A stretch of DNA of 46,060 nucleotides from a virus: IMG/VR virus record IMGVR_UViG_3300045988_015321, positions 1 to 46,060 of that record; one strand, given 5' to 3'. This document shows positions 9,296-27,742 of this stretch, one piece after another; within the stretch, counting starts at the first letter, position 1, and the number at the start of each line of letters is the position of its first letter. The notes beneath the pieces are model-generated. The model was not told the DNA's origin, searched no databases, and saw only the letters and a list, made by a program, of their open reading frames with translations. The translations under genes were made by a program, and so were the position numbers.

Positions 9296-9676
9296 CTATT
9301 CTCCTAACTGTTTTAAAATTTCTTTTGCAATTTTATTACTTTCCTGCATGGAAACTCCCCATCCATTATATTTTCTGTGGCATTCATCACAGTTCCATTC
9401 ACCATTATCACTTTCTTTAATTTCGCTATTGAATCTGCAATTATCGCAATACATATGATCGAGAGTGCTATAAATGATGCTTGCAATATCGTCTTGTTTG
9501 CTATTAGCATCGTCTACGTGTTTATACCTAGTTGAATATTCAAATGTTCTCAGCTCATTTTTCCCGACCCATTTAATCCATGCACCGCAATCCCCACAAT
9601 ACAATCCTGTATTATTCCCAACTTTCTTGATAAAAAGGTTTTTACTATTGCACTTTGGGCATCTATATTCTTTCAT
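9296..9676 (-). CDS. Zinc-ribbon protein
   Basis: CPKC...CGDC and CDNC...CDEC pairs are present. SD GGAGG lies 7 nt before the ATG at 9676, and there is an ATGA overlap with the upstream gene. Confidence 0.65.
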   Translation of the reverse strand: MKEYRCPKCNSKNLFIKKVGNNTGLYCGDCGAWIKWVGKNELRTFEYSTRYKHVDDANSKQDDIASIIYSTLDHMYCDNCRFNSEIKESDNGEWNCDECHRKYNGWGVSMQESNKIAKEILKQLGE

Positions 9677-9990
9677 CTTTTTTCCTCCCACACTCCCAAT
9701 AACCGCATTCTCTCATACAGTACAGCGACGGTCTTGCGTCTGTATCCGTAGAAGTCTTTCGGGTTCATTGGGATATATCTTTCTTTACTGATTTTCCTGT
9801 AACTTTTCCGGTGCAGGATATTTTCAATAACCATATCCGCTATCACCGTGTTTTTCGGGCAAGCTGACAAGGCAGCACTGGAAAGCAGATATCCGTACTC
9901 TGCCGGAAAGTCTTTCAGCATCGTGTTTAGTTTTTCTATGTCCTCTGCCGGAATACCGTAGTCTTTCAGCTTTTTATTCCTTGTCAGCAT
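9673..9990 (-). CDS. Hypothetical protein (possible DNA-binding regulator)
   Basis: 105-aa ORF with a basic C-terminal helix region (YGYRRKTVAVLYERMRLLG). Confidence 0.55.
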   Translation of the reverse strand: MLTRNKKLKDYGIPAEDIEKLNTMLKDFPAEYGYLLSSAALSACPKNTVIADMVIENILHRKSYRKISKERYIPMNPKDFYGYRRKTVAVLYERMRLLGVWEEKR

Positions 9991-10003
9991 ACCGTTCTCC
10001 TTT

Positions 10004-10105
10004 CTACTTGTCTGGATGGTGTTTGTCGTACATGATTGCTACACATGCAAGACCGGCCACTCCGACTATGATTCCAAGGGTGAATCCTAATAAGAATGTA
10101 ATCAT
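10004..10105 (-). CDS. Very small membrane peptide (33 aa)
   Basis: Hand-translated as MITFLLGFTLGIIVGVAGLACVAIMYDKHHPDK. ATGA overlap with the upstream stop. Confidence 0.35.
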   Translation of the reverse strand: MITFLLGFTLGIIVGVAGLACVAIMYDKHHPDK

Positions 10106-10461
10106 GATTCGTCCTCCCTATAGCGCTCCGGCAATTCCATCCAGGCGTTGACATATAAATCATTACCTAAACAAGATATTAAATCGTCACCGGCGTAAAA
10201 AATGCCGTTGCCATCTTTATCTCTTTCACATCTTCCGATTATTGGGATTGAGTAATTCGCAAAAGAGAGAAGAATATAATCATCTGTTTCTGGTAATCTC
10301 TCACTAACAGGAATCCAACCATTTTCTTTCTCGTCCTGTTCTATATCGTCTTGAAGCTGCTCGATCATATCTTGAATAACTTTGACATATACCCCAGCGT
10401 ATTTGTAGCAGTCCGAATATTTATCCTTGTACTGCTTTAATCTGTCTTTGATATGGCTCAT
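10102..10461 (-). CDS. Hypothetical protein, DUF551-like C-terminus
   Basis: GWIPVSERLPETDDYILLSF resembles DUF551. SD GAGGT lies 6 nt before the ATG at 10461. Confidence 0.55.
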   Translation of the reverse strand: MSHIKDRLKQYKDKYSDCYKYAGVYVKVIQDMIEQLQDDIEQDEKENGWIPVSERLPETDDYILLSFANYSIPIIGRCERDKDGNGIFYAGDDLISCLGNDLYVNAWMELPERYREDES

Positions 10462-21333: not shown

Positions 21334-22066
21334 CAAAATGATTTTCCATAAGGTCAGCAATCATCAGATACTCTTCTGCAATTTTCCCTTTTCTTGTATT
21401 TTTAACCTGTTCACGGAATTCCGGAATAGTCCCAAAGAAGCATCCGCATGCAACTCTGACCTTTTTATCTTTGCATCTAAAAAACGTAGTGGTACGGAAT
21501 TGAGCACCAAATCCATGAATAGTTGTGTAATCTGCATCGCCGTACACCTTTGCATCGCCGTACACCTTTGCATCGCCGTACACAATTGCATCGCCGGACA
21601 CCTCTGCATTGCCGTACACCTTTGCATCGCCGGACACCTCTGCATTGCCGTACACAATTGCATCGCCGGACACCCATGCATTGCCGGACACCATTGCATT
21701 GCCGTACACAATTGCATCGCCGGACACCTTTGCATTGCCGTACACCTTTGCATCGCCGGACACCTCTGCATTGCCGTACACCTTTGCATCGCCGTACACC
21801 CATGCATTGCCGGACACCATTGCATTGCCGTACACAATTGCATCGCCGGACACCCATGCATTGCCGGACACCTTTGCATTGCCGTACACAATTGCATCGC
21901 CGGACACCCATGCATTGCCGGACTGGTTTACATTTCCTTCTTTTTCTACCCATCCGCCAGTTTCTCCGGCTTCTACATCCGCAAATGAAATGAGTGCTTT
22001 GATTCGGAAAAGTTTCTTTCCGAAAATGTTAATTTTGGTTTCTGATGTTAATTCAAATTTCTTCAT
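21326..22066 (-). CDS. Hexapeptide-repeat (beta-helix/bactofilin-like) protein
   Basis: About 22 consecutive G-[ND]-A-x-V-[SY] hexapeptides sit between a ~55-aa N-terminal domain and a ~65-aa Cys-containing C-terminal domain. Confidence 0.8.
   Translation of the reverse strand: MKKFELTSETKINIFGKKLFRIKALISFADVEAGETGGWVEKEGNVNQSGNAWVSGDAIVYGNAKVSGNAWVSGDAIVYGNAMVSGNAWVYGDAKVYGNAEVSGDAKVYGNAKVSGDAIVYGNAMVSGNAWVSGDAIVYGNAEVSGDAKVYGNAEVSGDAIVYGDAKVYGDAKVYGDADYTTIHGFGAQFRTTTFFRCKDKKVRVACGCFFGTIPEFREQVKNTRKGKIAEEYLMIADLMENHFEK
21531..21922. repeat. Tandem 18-bp (hexapeptide-coding) repeat array, about 22 units
   Basis: Unit gcatYgccgKacacNNNt, with higher-order near-identical 36-90-bp blocks. All six frames stay open across the array. 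Confidence 0.9.
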
Positions 22067-22108
22067 TTTCTTTATCCTCCTTAATTACTGTGAATGCACA
22101 GTTTCTTT

Positions 22109-22137
22109 GTTTCGTTTTTTGGATTTTGTGTTATACT
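22109..22137 (+). promoter_or_regulatory. Extended -10 promoter for the plus-strand moron
   Basis: TGt-TATACT at 22129-22137. The -35 is weak. Confidence 0.4.
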
Positions 22138-22161
22138 CTCCTTTGGAAAGGAGGTGTAATA

Positions 22162-22350
22162 ATGACGGATAATGAAAAACGCGCACATGATTTAGCCATT
22201 GTAATTTGCACTGATGTTTGCCATTTAAAACGTCAATCTCAAGTTGATGCTGGCAAAACTCATGTAACCGTCGATTATTTCGAAGAATACATAAATGCTT
22301 ATGAATCCGCATTAGAAGCATTCAACGAAAAATATCCATCTGGCAAATAG
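22162..22350 (+). CDS. Small plus-strand hypothetical protein (62 aa), moron-like
   Basis: SD AAAGGAGGTG lies 7 nt before the ATG at 22162 (MTDNEKRAHDLAIVICTDVCHL...). It has its own promoter and terminator and points against the early operon. Confidence 0.6.
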   Translation: MTDNEKRAHDLAIVICTDVCHLKRQSQVDAGKTHVTVDYFEEYINAYESALEAFNEKYPSGK

Positions 22351-22381
22351 GTTTCTTATTAATCAAACATGTTAAGGAAAT

Positions 22382-22436
22382 AGGTTTCTTTGATGTTCGC
22401 ACCATCTTGGAAACCTTTTTCTTTTTTTTCTTGTTG
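22382..22436 (+). terminator. Putative terminator of the moron
   Basis: AGGTTTC-21 nt-GAAACCT is followed by a long T-rich run. Confidence 0.5.
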
Positions 22437-22456
22437 CTCATAAAATTTGCTCCTTT

Positions 22457-22663
22457 CTATTCCGGTAACTTTGGTTCAAGAAACTTGTCTGTTCCAACAG
22501 ATAACGCCCCACAAATTAATTCGTATTCATCGAAATCTAATCTGCGATTTCCATTGAGAGAAAGATTGAGTTTCTGAACAGGAATGCCAGTTTTGTTGGC
22601 GACAAATGTCTGCGTTATACCGTTGTTTTCAAGGTACGACTTAATCTTTTTACCAACGCACAT
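22457..22663 (-). CDS. Cro-like XRE-family HTH protein
   Basis: ITQTFVANKTGIPVQKLNLSLNG is an HTH_3-type motif. 68 aa, divergent from the cI-like gene. Confidence 0.8.
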   Translation of the reverse strand: MCVGKKIKSYLENNGITQTFVANKTGIPVQKLNLSLNGNRRLDFDEYELICGALSVGTDKFLEPKLPE

Positions 22664-22710
22664 TCTTCATTTCTCCTTTCTATTTAATTTCGTTCCTATC
22701 GAACAATTAC

Positions 22711-22800
22711 AGTATAACTTCGAATTACTCGAATGTCAAGAAGAAATTTCGAGGAAATCGAAATTATTTTATTGACAGTTCGAAATTTCTATATTATTAT
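22711..22800. promoter_or_regulatory. Lysis/lysogeny switch: divergent promoters with TCGAA-type operators
   Basis: Minus strand has TTGACA (22739-34), 17-nt spacer, TATACT (22716-11). Plus strand has TTGACA (22772-77), 17-nt spacer, TATTAT (22795-800). Palindromes are TTCGAattacTCGAA (22719-33), ATTTCGAggaaaTCGAAAT (22746-64) and GTTCGAAATTTC (22778-89). Confidence 0.75.
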
Positions 22801-22824
22801 TAGCTATGAAGGGAGGAAACGATA

Positions 22825-23169
22825 ATGACATTTGGTGAGAAAATCAAACAAGCCAGAACGGCAAAGAAGCTGACCCAGAAACAACTTGCAGAAAAAATCA
22901 ATGCAAAGCACAATTCAATTAGTGACTGGGAAAAAGATAAGTGTAAGCCAGATATGGACACTATTGAACTTCTATGCGGTGTTCTGGAAGTAACACCAAC
23001 ATACCTCATGGGTTCTAAAAGCGATGACGATTATGCAACCATAATTGGAAATCTTATGTCGGAACCTGACATCTTAGATTTTATCGAGGAATACAAAGCA
23101 CTCGATAAAGAAGATAAGAAAGCAATAAAACAAATAGTTTCATCACTAAACAAAAGGAGCAAGGGTTAA
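22825..23169 (+). CDS. cI-like XRE-family repressor
   Basis: FGEKIKQARTAKKLTQKQLAEKINAKHNSISDWEKDK is a canonical HTH_3 motif. 114 aa with SD GGGAGG. Confidence 0.85.
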   Translation: MTFGEKIKQARTAKKLTQKQLAEKINAKHNSISDWEKDKCKPDMDTIELLCGVLEVTPTYLMGSKSDDDYATIIGNLMSEPDILDFIEEYKALDKEDKKAIKQIVSSLNKRSKG

Positions 23170-23282
23170 TCCCCTTGCTTCTTTGATTTTAGATATTTAA
23201 TAAGAATTGTATAGACAAATTTTAATTTGCCCTCATTTTCAGTATTCTCTATCATTTCAATAATTTCTTTCTTGTAATCCAT
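23166..23282 (-). CDS. Small hypothetical ORF (38 aa)
   Basis: Hand-translated as MDYKKEIIEMIENTENEGKLKFVYTILIKYLKSKKQGD, with SD GGAGGT 6 nt upstream. Confidence 0.4.
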   Translation of the reverse strand: MDYKKEIIEMIENTENEGKLKFVYTILIKYLKSKKQGD

Positions 23283-23329
23283 ATTATACCTCCTACCGCA
23301 CAAAAACACTTGCTCTCTTTTACATTGCA

Positions 23330-23662
23330 TTATCTTTGGTACGATAAAGTGGCATCGGCGGACAAATCACCCCTCGCTAGTTGCCAATGATAGACCGGAA
23401 CATTCGTAATATCGAATATAATTTTTACTTTTGCAAAAAGGAAGTTCGCTTTGAGTGGAATTTTTATTGTTTCTATAATACCGTCTGTTTTCAAAATTCC
23501 CTTCGCGTTCCTGGTCAAGGTCGAATGCCTGCACATGTGTTGAGCAGAGTATATGTCAGAATCCTTGTGTACATAATCATCCACGCACATTGGAAGATGG
23601 ATTATATAATTGACAAAAACTATAACCGATATCAAAATTAGTACTTTTTTGACTCTTTTCAT
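23330..23662 (-). CDS. N-terminally membrane-anchored or secreted hypothetical protein (superinfection-exclusion candidate)
   Basis: Signal/TM-like N-terminus MKRVKKVLILISVIVFVNYII. AT-rich gene located in the lysogeny region. Confidence 0.55.
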   Translation of the reverse strand: MKRVKKVLILISVIVFVNYIIHLPMCVDDYVHKDSDIYSAQHMCRHSTLTRNAKGILKTDGIIETIKIPLKANFLFAKVKIIFDITNVPVYHWQLARGDLSADATLSYQR

Positions 23663-23686
23663 TCTAAAATCACCTACAAACGTCTA

Positions 23687-23715
23687 TTTACAACTATATT
23701 GCATGATGCTATAAT
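23687..23715 (+). promoter_or_regulatory. Strong sigma-A-type promoter of the LytTR operon
   Basis: TTTACA, 17-nt spacer, TGc-TATAAT. Confidence 0.6.
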
Positions 23716-23783
23716 CAACTATAACATATAGAATTCTTATTTAACGCAAATGGCGAAAATGACAATTTAAAGGACTGATTTGC

Positions 23784-24488
23784 ATGAAAATTGCGATTTG
23801 TGACGATAATTCTTTACAGATTGATTTTTTTAAGGCTCATATTGATGAGTTTTTGAAAAAGCGCGGAGACAAGAGTTACACGCTAAACACTTATAGTAGT
23901 GGAAAGCCGCTGATTGATGATATAGCAGACGGTCAATGGTACGATATAGTCGTGTTGGATGTGGTCCTTGATAATGAGAATGGCATAAATGTTGCAAGAC
24001 AGCTCAGGAAAAATGGATATAATGGCAACATTGCCTTCTGGACAGCATACAAAAACTATGTATTTGACGCATTGGACGTCTTGCCAGTGCATTACATCAT
24101 CAAAGGCTCTGAGCATGGACGCATGTATTCTGTCGTAGCACACACATTGGAAGATATCCGTGAGAAAGCCTTGACTATCAAAAACCGAGATCACTTCCAT
24201 CGGGTAGAATTCCGTCACATCGAATACATAGAAAGCCGAAATAAATCAATTCTTGTCCACTGTACCTGCGGTATCATACATGTAGTACGTGGAAAGCTGT
24301 CAGATATAGAGCCTCGCCTTGACGGAAGATTTCTCCGTTGTCATCAGAGCTACATCGTAAACATGGATGAAATCAAAGATGCGTCAGATCATTTCGAAAT
24401 GATATCAGGGGATATCGTTCCGATCAGGCAGAGGGAGGCTGCAAAAATAAGGAATCTATATAAGAATTATATCGAAAATTTTGAGTAA
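23784..24488 (+). CDS. LytR/AlgR-family response regulator (REC + LytTR DNA-binding domain), orphan
   Basis: REC residues are present (DD at 7-8, VVLDV acceptor Asp, T, K), and the LytTR pattern is present (IEYIESRNKSILVH...FLRCHQSYIVNMDEI). No histidine kinase is encoded in the genome. Confidence 0.9.
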   Translation: MKIAICDDNSLQIDFFKAHIDEFLKKRGDKSYTLNTYSSGKPLIDDIADGQWYDIVVLDVVLDNENGINVARQLRKNGYNGNIAFWTAYKNYVFDALDVLPVHYIIKGSEHGRMYSVVAHTLEDIREKALTIKNRDHFHRVEFRHIEYIESRNKSILVHCTCGIIHVVRGKLSDIEPRLDGRFLRCHQSYIVNMDEIKDASDHFEMISGDIVPIRQREAAKIRNLYKNYIENFE

Positions 24489-24508
24489 TCGTGTCAAAGG
24501 GGGAAACT

Positions 24509-25405
24509 ATGAAAAAGATACGAAATGTGTTGATGATTATTTGGACTGCATTCATTGTGCTGATGATTGTGGCTTTGATGAGTTCAAACGATCTTTCATC
24601 GGACAATATTATGGTCGTTGTTGTACTTGAGACATTTGGAATTGCTGTTTTGTATCTTATTTTTGCACTTTTGCTGTCTATTAAAAATAAGGTTCAAAAA
24701 CCTGCAATATCAAATAATTCCGTAGCAACCCAGCCGGCGGTTGTAGAAAAACCTGTTCGAGTATTGAATCTGAGAGTTATATCCGGTAAGGAGGATTTTG
24801 AGCTTGGTTCCAAACACACAAGATTTGATTTGAAGCAATGGAAAGATGGATCTGTTACAGTGTCAGATGCTCCAACCAAATATGAACTTTTCGACTATGA
24901 ATGGAACGGGTCGGAATACAGAACAGTAGAAAAGACAACTACAACATCTCACACTAAAGGGAAAAGTAAAGAAAAAACAAAACGAAAAGGAAGATTAGCT
25001 GGTGCTGTTATTGGTACGGCTGCTACAGCTGTCACGCTTGGAAACCCTGTTGTCGGTGCAGCTGTCGGTGCAGCTGTTGGAACCGGAAAGAAAACTAAAG
25101 GAAAGAATAATTCCACTACTACTGGAACTGCTACCACAACAAGTGATAACATTGAAGTGGATTCTTATGCATCTATGAAAATGCGGAATATCGAAACCAA
25201 TCAAATAAATATTATTGGATTCCGCTGTAGTTCAAATATAGATATGCAGTTAAAGAGTTTCAATATTTCCAAAAGCTCTGATGCTGTTGAAAATGTTCGA
25301 AATCAGAAAACATCCGTTGAACTACTGAAGGATTACAAAGAGCTTTTAGATAGCGGTATTATTACTCAAGAAGAATTTGACCAGAAAAAATCAGAACTTT
25401 TATAA
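24509..25405 (+). CDS. Membrane protein with a glycine-zipper segment and a C-terminal SHOCT domain
   Basis: Two N-terminal TM helices, a glycine-zipper segment GAVIGTAATAVTLGNPVVGAAVGAAVGTG, and a C-terminus LLKDYKELLDSGIITQEEFDQKKSELL that matches SHOCT. SD GGGGGA precedes the ATG at 24509. Confidence 0.8.
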   Translation: MKKIRNVLMIIWTAFIVLMIVALMSSNDLSSDNIMVVVVLETFGIAVLYLIFALLLSIKNKVQKPAISNNSVATQPAVVEKPVRVLNLRVISGKEDFELGSKHTRFDLKQWKDGSVTVSDAPTKYELFDYEWNGSEYRTVEKTTTTSHTKGKSKEKTKRKGRLAGAVIGTAATAVTLGNPVVGAAVGAAVGTGKKTKGKNNSTTTGTATTTSDNIEVDSYASMKMRNIETNQINIIGFRCSSNIDMQLKSFNISKSSDAVENVRNQKTSVELLKDYKELLDSGIITQEEFDQKKSELL

Positions 25406-25409
25406 AAAG

Positions 25410-25444
25410 AACCGGCTCCTGCTACCAACGGGAACCGGTTTTTA
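25410..25444 (+). terminator. Terminator after the LytTR/SHOCT operon
   Basis: AACCGG...CCGGTT stem followed by TTTTT. Confidence 0.55.
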
Positions 25445-25578
25445 AAAAAAAGAAAAATATTTTTACGTTCCGCAAAGCATAACGAAGTGAAACGTATCGC
25501 CTGACAAGTCATATTGTATCATCTTCGGTGTGTTCGGACAAGTCAGAAAGTTTGTTCGGTTAATAAGGAGGAAAAGAA

Positions 25579-26688
25579 ATGGCAACTGCAAAAAAACTGC
25601 CATCTGGCTCATGGAGATGTCAGGTATTCAGTCACATCGAAGAAATCCCGTTATCAGACGGGACTATCAAAAAGAAAAGGGTTTATAAATCTTTTACATG
25701 TTCAGATCCTAGCAAAAAAGGGAAGCGAATCTGTGAGCAAATGGCTGCCGAATGGGCAGCAAAAAAAGAAAGTGAAGTATTGACTGCGCGATATGTTCCA
25801 CCAGAAGATATGACATTAAAAGAGGCATGTAATAAATACATAGAAAGCAGAACAGGTGTTTTATCCCCTGGAACTATTAGAGAATATAAGCGATCTGTCA
25901 AAAGAGACATGGCTAAACTTATGTCATTAAATATAATGGAAATCACTCAAGAGGATGTTCAAGCTGAAATGAATCGTGAAGCACTTACTCATTCGCCAAA
26001 AACTGTGTACAATATGCATGGCTTTCTTTCTACTGTCTTGAAGACTTATCGTTCGGATTTCATCTTAAGAACTTCCTTACCTAAAAAGGTAAGACCGAAA
26101 ATCTATGTACCTACATCTGCCGAAGTCAAAAAGGTAATTGAATGTACTGTAGGTAGTGAATTAGAGATACCTGTTCTTCTGGCAGCGTTCGGTCCGATGA
26201 GGCGGTCAGAAATCTGTGCGCTTAATTCTGATCATATCAAGCAGAACATAGTACATGTCGAATATGCTATGGTTATGAATGATTCTCATGGTTGGGTTAT
26301 CAAAAGACCAAAATCTTTTGCTGGTGACAGATTCATTTCATATCCAGGTTTTGTTGCAGATAAATTAAAAGGAATACATGGGAAAATAACAAATTTGAAC
26401 CCATCGCAAATATCCGACAGATTTTCAGATCTGTTAGATGACAATCAGATTCATCATTTTCGATTCCATGATTTACGTCATTATTGTGCATCTGAACTTC
26501 ATTCACTCGGTATTCCAGATGTATATATTATGCAGCGCGGCGGTTGGGAGGATGATACCACATTAAAAAATGTATATCGGCACGTTCTGGTTGATCGAGA
26601 AAAAGAGATGAATGAAATTGGGAATGATTATTTTTCCAAGCTATGCAACACAAAATGCAACACGAAAAAAGAAAGTGCTGAAAAATAG
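25579..26688 (+). CDS. int: Tyrosine recombinase / phage integrase
   Basis: Catalytic-region motifs are present: MRRSEICAL (Arg), HDLRHYCAS (H-x-x-R), GGWEDDTTLKNVYRH (Tyr). SD AAGGAGG. Confidence 0.95.
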   Translation: MATAKKLPSGSWRCQVFSHIEEIPLSDGTIKKKRVYKSFTCSDPSKKGKRICEQMAAEWAAKKESEVLTARYVPPEDMTLKEACNKYIESRTGVLSPGTIREYKRSVKRDMAKLMSLNIMEITQEDVQAEMNREALTHSPKTVYNMHGFLSTVLKTYRSDFILRTSLPKKVRPKIYVPTSAEVKKVIECTVGSELEIPVLLAAFGPMRRSEICALNSDHIKQNIVHVEYAMVMNDSHGWVIKRPKSFAGDRFISYPGFVADKLKGIHGKITNLNPSQISDRFSDLLDDNQIHHFRFHDLRHYCASELHSLGIPDVYIMQRGGWEDDTTLKNVYRHVLVDREKEMNEIGNDYFSKLCNTKCNTKKESAEK

Positions 26689-26883
26689 CGTATATTAGGA
26701 TTTTTCTTGCAGGTTCAAGTCCTGTCATCCGCATTTTTTATGCAGTACTTGTATTTACTAGGATTGCCAAGAAATCAAGTATTTTCAATGCTTACAGCAA
26801 TTTTAAATTAGCTCATAAAATATGTTATTTTGCCAGTTTTGGCATAAAAAAGAAGAACTATGCAACACGAAATGCAACACGAA
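26641..26883. other. attP region: tRNA 3'-end mimic core flanked by arm-type repeats
   Basis: Positions 26709-26733 read GCAGG-TTCAAGT-CCTGT-CATCCGC-A (T-arm, 3' acceptor strand, discriminator). The 26-bp repeat ctatgcaacacRaaatgcaacacgaa occurs at 26641-26666 and 26858-26883, each being 2 x ATGCAACACRAA. Confidence 0.75.
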
Positions 26884-26938
26884 TTTGATACAATATGTAA
26901 AAAACAGCCCCAAGGAATAATTTCCAAGGGGCTTAAAT

Positions 26939-27742
26939 TTATGCTTTTTTGATGTATTTTGCAGAAACAAATCCAAAATATTTTCCGGCAATGCGGATAT
27001 AGTACCAAGATGCTCCATCTTTGGCTTTAATGGTATCGCATACATCAACTAAATTGCCTTTTGCAAGTGTAGGATAGCTTTTAAGCTGTGCATACTCTGT
27101 TCCTGCCCATGTGCGGACATTAAGTGTATTTGCAGTTACCTTTCCCACCCACTTCGGAGTTTTAGACAGAATAGTTGGCGTTGAAAGCGTACTTGCTTTT
27201 GCGCCAGTGGTAACAGCGATAGCCACGTGGTGGTTATCATTCAGGAGGATATCTCCTGCCTTTAGATAGTCACCGGATGTCAGATACTTTCTATCCGTCA
27301 GTACTTTCGCACCGGCAGCCTTCATTGCAGCTCTCATGTTCCGTGTCGTCAGATAGATGCTGACCGCTTTGAGCCTTGCATTATTTAAGCGATACCCAGC
27401 CCCTTTGACAATAGCTGCTGTACTTGCGCTGCAATCAGATTCGCAAGCTACCGTGATCTGTGCTGGATCGTAGTTACTTGCCTTTAAGTGCTGCCAGAAT
27501 GAATACCGGTCATTGCTGTTTCCGGAAGTACCCTGATCGTACCCAATGAGATTGTTCTGTGCCGCTTTTGTCGCCATGTCTGCGATCATGGCTGCGATTT
27601 TAGCGTCATTGAATCTTAGAACACAGAACCACGGTCTGCTGTACCAGTTCATAATCTGATATTCTGTACCAGTCTGATCTCCTGCTTTCCCACCTGCATA
27701 TCTTCCGTGTTCATCATGTCCGCAGTTACTGATTTTTACCAT
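26939..27742 (-). CDS. Endolysin 2: NlpC/P60/CHAP-like cysteine peptidase with a C-terminal SH3 domain
   Basis: Candidate catalytic Cys (ESDCSAS) and His (DNHHVAIAV). SH3-like C-terminus VTANTLNVRTWAGTEY...WYYIRIAGKYFGFVSAKYI. Confidence 0.8.
   Translation of the reverse strand: MVKISNCGHDEHGRYAGGKAGDQTGTEYQIMNWYSRPWFCVLRFNDAKIAAMIADMATKAAQNNLIGYDQGTSGNSNDRYSFWQHLKASNYDPAQITVACESDCSASTAAIVKGAGYRLNNARLKAVSIYLTTRNMRAAMKAAGAKVLTDRKYLTSGDYLKAGDILLNDNHHVAIAVTTGAKASTLSTPTILSKTPKWVGKVTANTLNVRTWAGTEYAQLKSYPTLAKGNLVDVCDTIKAKDGASWYYIRIAGKYFGFVSAKYIKKA

Follow-up and report, generated by a model that had tools for sequence, protein, structure and literature searches.

A kinase-less LytTR response regulator in the lysogeny region of a Blautia phage and its candidate target, the divergent operon beside the cI-like repressor gene

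Classical DNA-damage inducers have little effect on most human gut prophages, which raises the question of what does wake them. The virus record IMGVR_UViG_3300045988_015321 (the window; 46,060 bp, a complete phage record with direct terminal repeats) poses a concrete form of it: its lysogeny region encodes a 234-amino-acid (aa) response regulator with a receiver (REC) and a LytTR domain (23784..24488, plus strand; Pfam, PHROG), unaccompanied by a histidine kinase gene. What does such an orphan regulator control, and what would activate it? The analysis presented here was carried out wholly in silico. We give roughly even chances to the reading that the kinase-less regulator adds a host-derived phosphorylation input to lysogeny control by activating the divergent operon located upstream of its gene, which comprises a 110-aa and a 38-aa open reading frame (ORF), the latter possibly an SOS-gated antirepressor. 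The virus is a temperate phage of Blautia/Lachnospiraceae, which are gut bacteria. Its genes almost all lie on the minus strand; the lysogeny region, at 22.1-26.7 kb, is a short plus-strand block. The placement of the regulator on the plus strand of this region, as proposed in the initial annotation, was borne out: the island that contains it is flanked by a gene for a 114-aa cI-like helix-turn-helix (HTH) repressor and by a tyrosine integrase gene.

The regulator gene and the 110-aa ORF (23330..23662, minus strand, AGGTGA ribosome-binding site) are separated by a 121-bp intergenic region, and the divergent ORFs start 122 bp from the regulator gene. Homologues of the regulator were distinguished by their identity to the window protein as type A (95-100%), type B (72%), type C (62-66%) and type D (51%; L016-L018). 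The intergenic sequences from 164 loci gave 65 unique upstream sequences (72 when a slightly longer window was taken), which were read on the minus strand. The initial annotation had proposed a search of the phage genome for LytTR-type direct repeats, and a repeat of this type was found directly upstream of the regulator. The motif AAATGGCGAAA was conserved in this position among types A, B and C despite the divergence of the surrounding DNA. Roughly half of the type-C sequences, and also locus L283 with its different composition, contain the core TTCGCCA twice, the second copy starting exactly 21 bp from the first, whereas types A and B contain it once in perfect form. The perfect copy of the window is DR1 (direct repeat 1; ATTTTCGCCATTT, plus strand AAATGGCGAAAAT; 23748..23760, minus strand), the sole intergenic exact match in the phage, and a degenerate second copy with 8/13 matches, DR2 (23769..23781, minus strand), is located 21 bp from it and overlaps the ribosome-binding site of the regulator. 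The TTCGCCA motif was absent from the equivalent regions of regulator-less loci.

The distance between this repeat and a promoter element on the same strand was nearly constant. An extended -10 of the form TGnTAnnnT followed the promoter-proximal CCA by exactly 24 nt in 64 of the 65 unique sequences and by 25 nt in the remaining one, and the 24-nt offset held across four unrelated spacer sequences. Because TGnTAnnnT has a background frequency of only 0.0017 per position in the phage, the shared offset is, on these alignments, not a product of chance. The resulting layout (repeat, 4 bp, weak -35, 17 bp, TGn-10) faces the divergent operon. It reproduces the published geometry of promoters activated by LytTR regulators, where a 12-bp spacer separates the 9-bp repeats and a further 4-11 bp separate these from the -35 (PMC6193735), but points at the divergent operon. 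The corresponding predicted promoter, P_div (23718..23746, minus strand), has the extended -10 TGTTATAGT (23726..23718) and a weak -35 (about 23746..23741). A simple scan detected no minus-strand sigma-70 promoter in the region between the regulator and the 110-aa ORF, the -35 being poor, which fits an activator-dependent promoter. DR1 and DR2 are thus put forward as the candidate site of the LytTR regulator, and the divergent operon as its most likely direct target. Matches to ATGGCGAAA were only marginally enriched in the phage (26 versus 15.2 +/- 4.2 expected); two of them were exact, one of these inside a tail gene, and a genome-wide paired-repeat scan returned no second credible repeat pair in the phage. 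These scans gave no evidence for a phage-wide regulon, and the idea was dropped.

The regulator has a strong promoter of its own. P_RR (23687..23715, plus strand), the near-consensus sigma-70 promoter already noted in the initial annotation (TTTACA, 17-nt spacer, TGcTATAAT), scored 11/12 with a TG extension and is conserved in types A, B and C. The -10 boxes of the two promoters abut (plus strand 23710-23715, minus strand 23723-23718), and the same back-to-back arrangement was seen in type C. Since the predicted start sites, at about 23722 (plus) and 23711 (minus), cross each other, RNA polymerase is predicted to be unable to occupy P_RR and P_div together. The repeat lies downstream of P_RR, at approximately +26 to +38 of the transcript that starts there, and faces P_div, which makes positive autoregulation unlikely. 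That position would also suit an operator of pure autorepression, which would limit the regulator and its SHOCT or zinc-ribbon cargo (described below), the divergent operon being driven independently, e.g., by LexA or cI. Consistently with such an arrangement, the divergent ORFs function elsewhere without the regulator and with a cI-operator-like 9-mer in the equivalent region, and the small ORF has a promoter of its own. Autorepression alone, however, would leave unaccounted for the exact 24-nt distance from the repeat to an extended -10 on the opposite strand across four unrelated spacers, as well as the lack of a sigma-70-quality -35 in front of the divergent gene, which is typical of activator-dependent promoters. 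We consider it rather improbable.

The assignment of the regulator was confirmed by the hidden Markov model searches suggested in the initial annotation, which matched Response_reg (PF00072, 2.6e-10), LytTR (PF04397, 2.8e-14) and, in the downstream protein, SHOCT. Its LytTR domain also matched the LytTR domain of PDB entry 3d6w (8.7e-6), and the protein was assigned to PHROG 8810 (2e-34), a phage family of unknown function. The NCBIfam equivalog cut-offs for AgrA, LytR and BtsR were not reached (51, 40 and 39 bits versus 375, 400 and 246). The receiver was compared in an alignment of 29 sequences, i.e., the window regulator and 28 homologues, which included phage-clade proteins of 51-98% identity and kinase-paired cellular proteins of 29-37%. 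Residues D7, D8, D59, T87 and K107 were invariant and Y104 was nearly so; the earlier description of a complete REC-LytTR protein with its phospho-acceptor residues intact therefore stands. The ratio of non-synonymous to synonymous substitution rates (dN/dS) was 0.04-0.05 within type A and 0.17-0.22 within type C.

Profile searches of the complete 46,060-bp record for HATPase_c, HATPase_c_5, Hpt and AgrB found none of them. No kinase ATPase domain was detected in five related phage records, which represented types A, B and C and four of which were estimated to be 100% complete, and no kinase adjoined the phage-clade homologues in the neighbourhoods surveyed. The initial annotation had stated that the phage encodes no histidine kinase and that the regulator would depend on the host for phosphorylation, and had named a kinase elsewhere in related phages as a sign of simple loss in the window phage. 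The first statement was confirmed, and simple loss was rejected, as the kinase was missing from all five related records. Given a receiver that is intact and under selection, the second statement holds as well: since the phage encodes no kinase, any phosphorylation of the regulator must come from the host. As far as the compared genomes can tell, the kinase-less state is a stable, selected trait of the clade. The phosphate would probably come from an AgrC-type (HATPase_c_5) kinase of the host or from acetyl phosphate. The nearest cellular homologues of the regulator (35-37% identity) adjoin AgrC-type HATPase_c_5 kinases, or else adjoin or are fused with Hpt. In the genome of Blautia fusiformis, which carries a type-B prophage, three strong HATPase_c_5 kinases were found, two of them beside LytTR regulators. 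The third AgrC-type kinase is at most a possible orphan: there is no LytTR gene on its contig, but it lies at the contig end. Some cellular relatives are Hpt fusions of about 360 aa or have the gene of a separate Hpt protein behind them (P0051, P0053, P0054; L022, 6744-7088), which indicates that part of the regulator family works in phosphorelays, not in simple kinase pairs.

One feature of the receiver sets the phage clade apart. In all phage-clade regulators K107 is followed by glycine (IIKGSE; window 24102-24107, residues 107-108), whereas the kinase-paired cellular relatives have Lys-Pro after beta5. The Lys-Gly pair might be an adaptation of a receiver that takes phosphate from non-cognate donors. 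Together with the lack of a kinase in six phage genomes, the same clade-specific substitution could also be taken to mean that the regulator acts without phosphorylation, its receiver being atypical or constitutively active and perhaps set by the level of the protein itself. Atypical receivers usually lose some of the phospho-chemistry residues. Here, however, all five of these residues, along with the switch position Y104, show no or almost no variation even though identity within the clade falls as low as 51%, and the dN/dS values are very small. A phosphorylation-independent mode of action is thus regarded as highly unlikely.

The divergent operon was then of interest as the proposed target. 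The product of the 110-aa ORF has an N-terminal membrane anchor and a poorly structured tail; its AlphaFold model (pLDDT 45, predicted local distance difference test) is confident only for a transmembrane (TM) helix at residues 2-22. No family matches were obtained in Pfam, PHROG, NCBIfam or PADLOC. The dN/dS values of 0.12-0.61 indicate a coding and loosely constrained gene, and the C-terminal tail varies by frameshift. At the 3' end of the gene (window 23330-23420; also L012, L283 and L003), a 'QLAR-DLS' stretch is kept across unrelated alleles; because the promoter region of the 38-aa ORF shares this DNA, the conservation may lie partly at the DNA level.

The 38-aa ORF (23166..23282, minus strand, GGAGG ribosome-binding site) is present in nearly all related loci; its N-terminus (MDYKKEIIEM) is conserved and its C-terminus varies. 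Which allele is present depends on the allele of cI, not on that of the regulator or of the 110-aa ORF. It was 89-100% identical only where the 114-aa cI was at least 93% identical, and in L031, L034 and L035, which keep the window's 110-aa allele together with another cI, the small ORF was 47-49% identical. The cI-like repressor itself (22825..23169, plus strand; Pfam HTH_3 1.4e-12; PHROG transcriptional regulator/repressor families) showed no domain besides the HTH in a Pfam scan, and because the S24 peptidase domain is absent, the protein is probably not self-cleaving. When the DNA that separates the small ORF from the 3' end of the 110-aa ORF was aligned, a second promoter emerged, for which many variants have TGATATAAT followed by GAAC-N4-GTT(C/T), the LexA (Cheo) box of Bacillus and Clostridium (PMC4234289). 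The region within about 90 nt upstream of 163 small-ORF starts was surveyed with the published Clostridial consensus (PMC4234289). A perfect GAAC-N4-GTT[CT] box was present in 142 of them, at several offsets and in several sequence classes, a one-mismatch box in 16, and no box in five. The window belongs to the one-mismatch group: its box-like element GAGCAAGTGTTT (23304..23315, minus strand), one mismatch from GAAC-N4-GTTT, lies 33 nt upstream of the 38-aa ORF; there, the siblings L034 and L106 read GAACAAATGTTT. Elsewhere in the window, a perfect LexA box was found only once, inside the integrase gene. A candidate -10 (GATAAT; 23329..23334, minus strand) of the small ORF's own promoter overlaps the stop codon of the 110-aa ORF, where relatives have TGATATAAT.

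No terminator was predicted between the 110-aa ORF and the 38-aa ORF before 23184, so transcription from the regulator-dependent promoter should read into the small ORF. A bidirectional intrinsic terminator (23153..23184; terminator-like hairpins on both strands, inverted repeat I2) separates the small ORF from cI, for which reason interference with cI by convergent transcription was rejected. From its cis-elements and its linkage to cI, the 38-aa ORF is probably a repressor-linked, SOS-controlled induction gene. In the initial annotation, the two divergent ORFs had merely completed the island; both do exist, but they are not mere filler, as the cis-elements make them the likeliest target of the regulator. 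The cI-operator-like 9-mer AAATTTCGA occurs in the window in the cI/cro region (22744 and 22780) and at only one other site. Regulator-less siblings have this 9-mer between the divergent ORF and the cargo gene (L002, 7348; L105 and L106, 4912). Two of them, L002 and L106, carry the window's 114-aa cI, and the LytTR repeat of the window stands where these siblings have AAATTTCGA.

Downstream of the regulator lies the gene of a 298-aa membrane protein (24509..25405, plus strand; Pfam, AlphaFold model). The initial annotation had placed it in the same operon and described two TM helices, a glycine zipper and a SHOCT tail, which was upheld: the intergenic gap is 20 nt without a terminator, and SHOCT (PF09851, 3.6e-9) covers residues 273-298. 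The AlphaFold model (pLDDT 69, i.e., moderate) contains TM helices at 2-25 and 31-62, a SHOCT helical hairpin, and a PH-like beta domain (84-149 and 204-249) split by a low-confidence glycine-zipper insert. PF27000 (PH_gly_zipper) has mostly weak recorded matches for close relatives of the protein and gave no match in the Pfam scan of the window. Foldseek searches against PDB and BFVD returned no fold match below E = 0.3; the best matches were PTB/PH-like, at E of about 0.5. The operon is closed by a terminator region (25405..25450, plus strand; terminator at about 25417-25445) with a terminator-like site at 25417-25433 followed by a T run, and this region is also the right recombination breakpoint of the cassette.

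The initial annotation had further suggested that the regulator and the SHOCT protein form a pair like HdrRM or BrsRM. Their closeness without an intervening terminator would agree with one signalling unit, in which the SHOCT protein senses for or inhibits the LytTR regulator, or with a membrane-triggered abortive or exclusion module. The same could be said of a tblastn tally of regulator type and downstream gene in 80 viral loci: all 53 type-A loci had SHOCT downstream (53/53), and all 27 type-B loci had a zinc-ribbon protein (27/27; SHOCT 0/27). The cI, cro and recombinase genes varied freely around both types. The neighbourhood survey of homologues, however, answered the question of whether the pair is conserved in prophages in the negative, as each gene occurs without the other. 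In the same slot between cI and the integrase, SHOCT homologues of 71, 60 and 55% identity were found behind promoters of their own and without a regulator, and the zinc-ribbon protein also occurs without the regulator. Behind type-C regulators (found also on phage contigs of approximately 80 kb) and type-D regulators there is no membrane gene, and both types converge on an endolysin gene. Moreover, the receiver domain of the regulator is complete, the repeats do not lie upstream of the regulator's own -35, and PADLOC gave no defence-system match for any of the four island proteins. The sibling MT835739, with flanks 80-90% identical to the window, illustrates the exchange: its homology covers cI/cro and runs into the 110-aa ORF from the 3' end as far as about 23428, a zinc-ribbon/TM/OB-like protein then replaces the regulator and SHOCT, so that no regulator is present, and homology resumes at the terminator (25402-25456), followed by a serine recombinase in place of the tyrosine integrase. 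The co-variation of the regulator allele with the downstream gene is accounted for by linkage within a cassette with breakpoints at about 23428 and 25402. The notion of a single unit is thus largely refuted by the survey, and we hold it to be most improbable. On the genomes compared, the slot appears to hold independently assorting cassettes, and SHOCT to be cargo, not the partner of the regulator. From the position of its gene, the SHOCT protein plausibly has an envelope or exclusion function expressed in the lysogen. A further SHOCT homologue (41% identity), which lacks the N-terminal TM helices, was found in a bacterial chromosomal context.

The origin and spread of the regulator bear on whether it acts on the phage or on the host. 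Two scans returned at least 445 and 161 viral contigs that encode relatives, and a 98%-identical protein was listed in 1,556 index blocks of an assembly collection. With one genome per species, the phage-clade regulator was present in only three genomes, those of Blautia fusiformis and two metagenome-assembled genomes. The remaining cellular matches were at most 40% identical, and the Blautia chromosomal regulators 26-29%, which is why the regulator represents an old phage lineage and not a recent copy of a host gene. The prophage was found in Blautia obeum isolates and many gut metagenomes, with at least two integration sites, and the regulator is highly mobile among mosaic phages differing in cI, integrase and attachment site. 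Two gene calls (P0038, P0047) of 156-242 aa join an XRE-type HTH to the LytTR domain of the clade (55-59% identity to the window regulator); these may be genuine fusions with the HTH in the place of the receiver, or else artefacts of short contigs. Type-C regulators also occur on many 77-85-kb phage contigs, where they converge on the endolysin gene with no adjacent integrase (L210-L289; L012, 6732-7538), which suggests that the module also serves a second, much larger phage type.

Its mobility among phages with different cI genes, integrases and attachment sites would also be expected of a lysogenic-conversion gene, as would its place in the classic moron slot between cI and integrase and its strong promoter without obvious cI control. 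Such a regulator might reprogramme host LytTR genes, or act on a host Agr-like system as its decoy or phosphate sink; in either case the repeat at its own locus would be autoregulatory only. AgrC-type kinase/LytTR pairs do exist in the host genus. Yet the sole strong site in the phage has promoter geometry facing the divergent phage operon, and an identity of at most 40% to any cellular regulator, 26-29% to those of Blautia, does not make specific host mimicry evident. An action aimed at the host is accordingly judged unlikely.

The favoured reading, in which the regulator activates the divergent operon, can be worded as a sequence of events. P_RR is strong and has no cI operator-like 9-mer near it, hence the regulator should be made in the lysogen, together with the unrelated SHOCT cargo. 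A host donor would phosphorylate it. From the binding of the repeat onward, the steps are ones that we infer: the phosphorylated regulator would bind the repeat and recruit RNA polymerase to P_div, and this activation would also damp the regulator's own operon, SHOCT included, given that the repeat lies at +26 to +38 of its transcript and that the -10 boxes abut. The divergent operon would then be expressed, yielding the 110-aa membrane protein and, by read-through, the 38-aa product. The latter is most simply read as an SOS-controlled antirepressor of a non-cleavable cI, owing to the LexA-box promoter in most relatives and the co-variation with the short cI. The prophage would thereby gain a second, SOS-independent induction route, or at least a modulation of repressor activity; if the 38-aa product is an antirepressor, there would be two inputs to induction, SOS via LexA and a host phosphorelay via the phage receiver. 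The most specific version of this scheme is possible but doubtful. In it, a host kinase, e.g., an AgrC-type peptide quorum sensor, phosphorylates the regulator and so flips the overlapping promoters to the divergent operon, whose LexA-gated 38-aa antirepressor is specific for the non-cleavable cI, and induction integrates DNA damage with a host phosphorelay. It would also give sharper form to the suggestion of the initial annotation that the prophage might eavesdrop on host density signals for the lysis-lysogeny decision.

Several observations weigh against these proposals. Types A and B are related by descent, and the 65 unique sequences amount to about four independent observations. Both the window and type B have a single clear repeat, DR2 being the degenerate copy (8/13) that overlaps the ribosome-binding site, and the 51%-identity type-D regulators have neither the repeat nor the 110-aa ORF. 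The divergent ORFs are also present in regulator-less phages and hence do not depend on the regulator, and the cI-operator-like 9-mer in such siblings hints that control at this place was swapped between cI and the regulator, not added. K107-G in place of the cellular Lys-Pro might alter the behaviour of the receiver. Regarding the small ORF, the LexA box of the window is mismatched and the promoter weak, the host lexA promoter that was inspected has a near-consensus box only, and the antirepressor role of the 38-aa peptide is purely inferred.

The proposed circuit was compared with known systems. With AgrA, LytR and BtsR, the regulator shares the REC-LytTR architecture and all receiver residues, and, by prediction, it probably recognises direct repeats of 9-10 bp in a 21-bp register beside a weak -35. 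It differs from them in being phage-encoded, with no kinase in its own and five related phage genomes, in being at most 40% identical to any cellular protein found, and in having Lys-Gly for Lys-Pro after beta5. The HdrRM and BrsRM LytTR Regulatory Systems of Streptococcus mutans (PMC6193735) likewise combine a LytTR regulator gene with a following membrane protein gene in one operon and use direct repeats with a 12-bp spacer near the -35. Their regulators, in contrast, lack the receiver that is fully present here; the membrane gene of the window is swappable cargo and not a dedicated inhibitor, and the repeats follow P_RR instead of preceding it, 4 bp ahead of the divergent -35.

A closer precedent for the logic is provided by transcription factor-small ORF (TF-smORF) modules, in which phage transcription factors activate a divergent small ORF that inactivates cI (bioRxiv 10.1101/2022.09.16.508337). 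As in modules of the VqmA_Phage-Qtip type, the gene of a phage sensory factor is divergent from a small ORF that lies beside or acts on cI (here by position). Here, too, an SOS-independent induction input would be provided, and the small ORFs have no recognisable domains and are specific for their partner cI (here as judged from allele tracking). Those modules differ in belonging to linear plasmid-like phages of Gram-negative hosts (Vibrio, Aeromonas), with repA-telN or par loci and one-component ligand sensors, whereas the window has a two-component receiver, a 110-aa membrane gene between promoter and small ORF, and an extra LexA-box promoter. No response regulator, LytTR protein or Gram-positive case is reported in that study (Silpe et al., bioRxiv 10.1101/2022.09.16.508337). 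The inactivation of short non-cleavable repressors by LexA-controlled small antirepressors is an established strategy of Gifsy-type prophages (PMC3121763). The present locus resembles it in that the repressor, with 114 aa as against 136 aa in Gifsy, is likewise short and lacks a cleavage domain, and in that a LexA-box-like element precedes a small gene; it differs in that the small gene encodes 38 aa, lies beside cI and not outside the immunity region, has a one-mismatch box and is preceded by a second, predicted regulator-dependent promoter. Tum of coliphage 186 is another LexA-controlled small antirepressor. The Clostridioides difficile phage phiCDHM1 encodes agrB, agrD and agrC and no regulator (PMC3901668; reviewed in PMC11945551). 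Like the window, it is a phage of Clostridia with part of an Agr-type pathway, the host supplying the rest, and it is the mirror image of the present case: signal and kinase there, the regulator only here, with no AgrB or kinase. In a literature search, the phrase 'phage-encoded response regulator' was not found, and reviews mention phage LytTR proteins in passing only.

If the proposed circuit is correct, phages would tap host two-component signalling directly with a receiver of their own. This would widen 'phage eavesdropping' from the one-component receptors of Vibrio plasmid-phages to integrative phages of gut Firmicutes, and would be the first response-regulator version, as well as the first version in a Gram-positive integrative phage, of the TF-smORF logic. 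It would also offer a handle for controlling prophage induction in the microbiome. The circuit is concrete, consisting of a 13-bp repeat, two overlapping promoters, a phospho-acceptor Asp, a 38-aa candidate antirepressor and a cognate 114-aa repressor, and the module is abundant and found in Blautia, a dominant gut genus. Should only the cis-regulatory part hold, the locus would still represent a clean natural case of an orphan LytTR regulator with an identifiable target.

The remainder of the lysogeny region has a conventional layout. The cI/cro divergent promoter and operator region (22664..22824) contains two back-to-back promoters, each scoring 11/12, and the inverted repeat AGAAATTTCGA/TCGAAATTTCT (22742-22752 and 22780-22790), found by an inverted-repeat search. 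A promoter scan placed the minus-strand promoter of the cro-like gene (TTGACA, 17-nt spacer, TATACT) at 22739-22711; the gene itself (22457..22663, minus strand; 68 aa, Pfam HTH_26/HTH_3) leads the leftward lytic operon. On the other side of the island, the tyrosine integrase gene (25579..26688, plus strand; Pfam Phage_integrase, PHROG 1) is replaced in sibling phages by a serine recombinase. No tRNA genes were found in the window and no Rfam elements in 22000-27000. Outside the plus-strand block, the segment 21326-22066 encodes a 246-aa YdcK-type beta-solenoid protein built of near-identical 18-bp units, with all six frames open; such arrays are much shorter in siblings (153 aa in L002, 139 aa in L003), and the repeat number is highly variable.

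The siblings also differed in their integration neighbourhoods. One regulator-less prophage is integrated beside BREX genes (L111, 7203-9436; BrxA, BrxB and the N-terminus of BrxC/PglY). Sporulation-gene intervening elements exist in Bacillus and Clostridia, and a likeness to these was seen in the serine-recombinase siblings (L005, L007, L009 and L010, about 9327-10160; L105, 7587-8362), which adjoin a 68-72-aa fragment of Mn_catalase (CotJC-like), then cotJB and cotJA, suggesting insertion into the spore-coat gene cotJC. The tyrosine-integrase siblings adjoin a Metallophos_2/Ham1p-like cluster instead.

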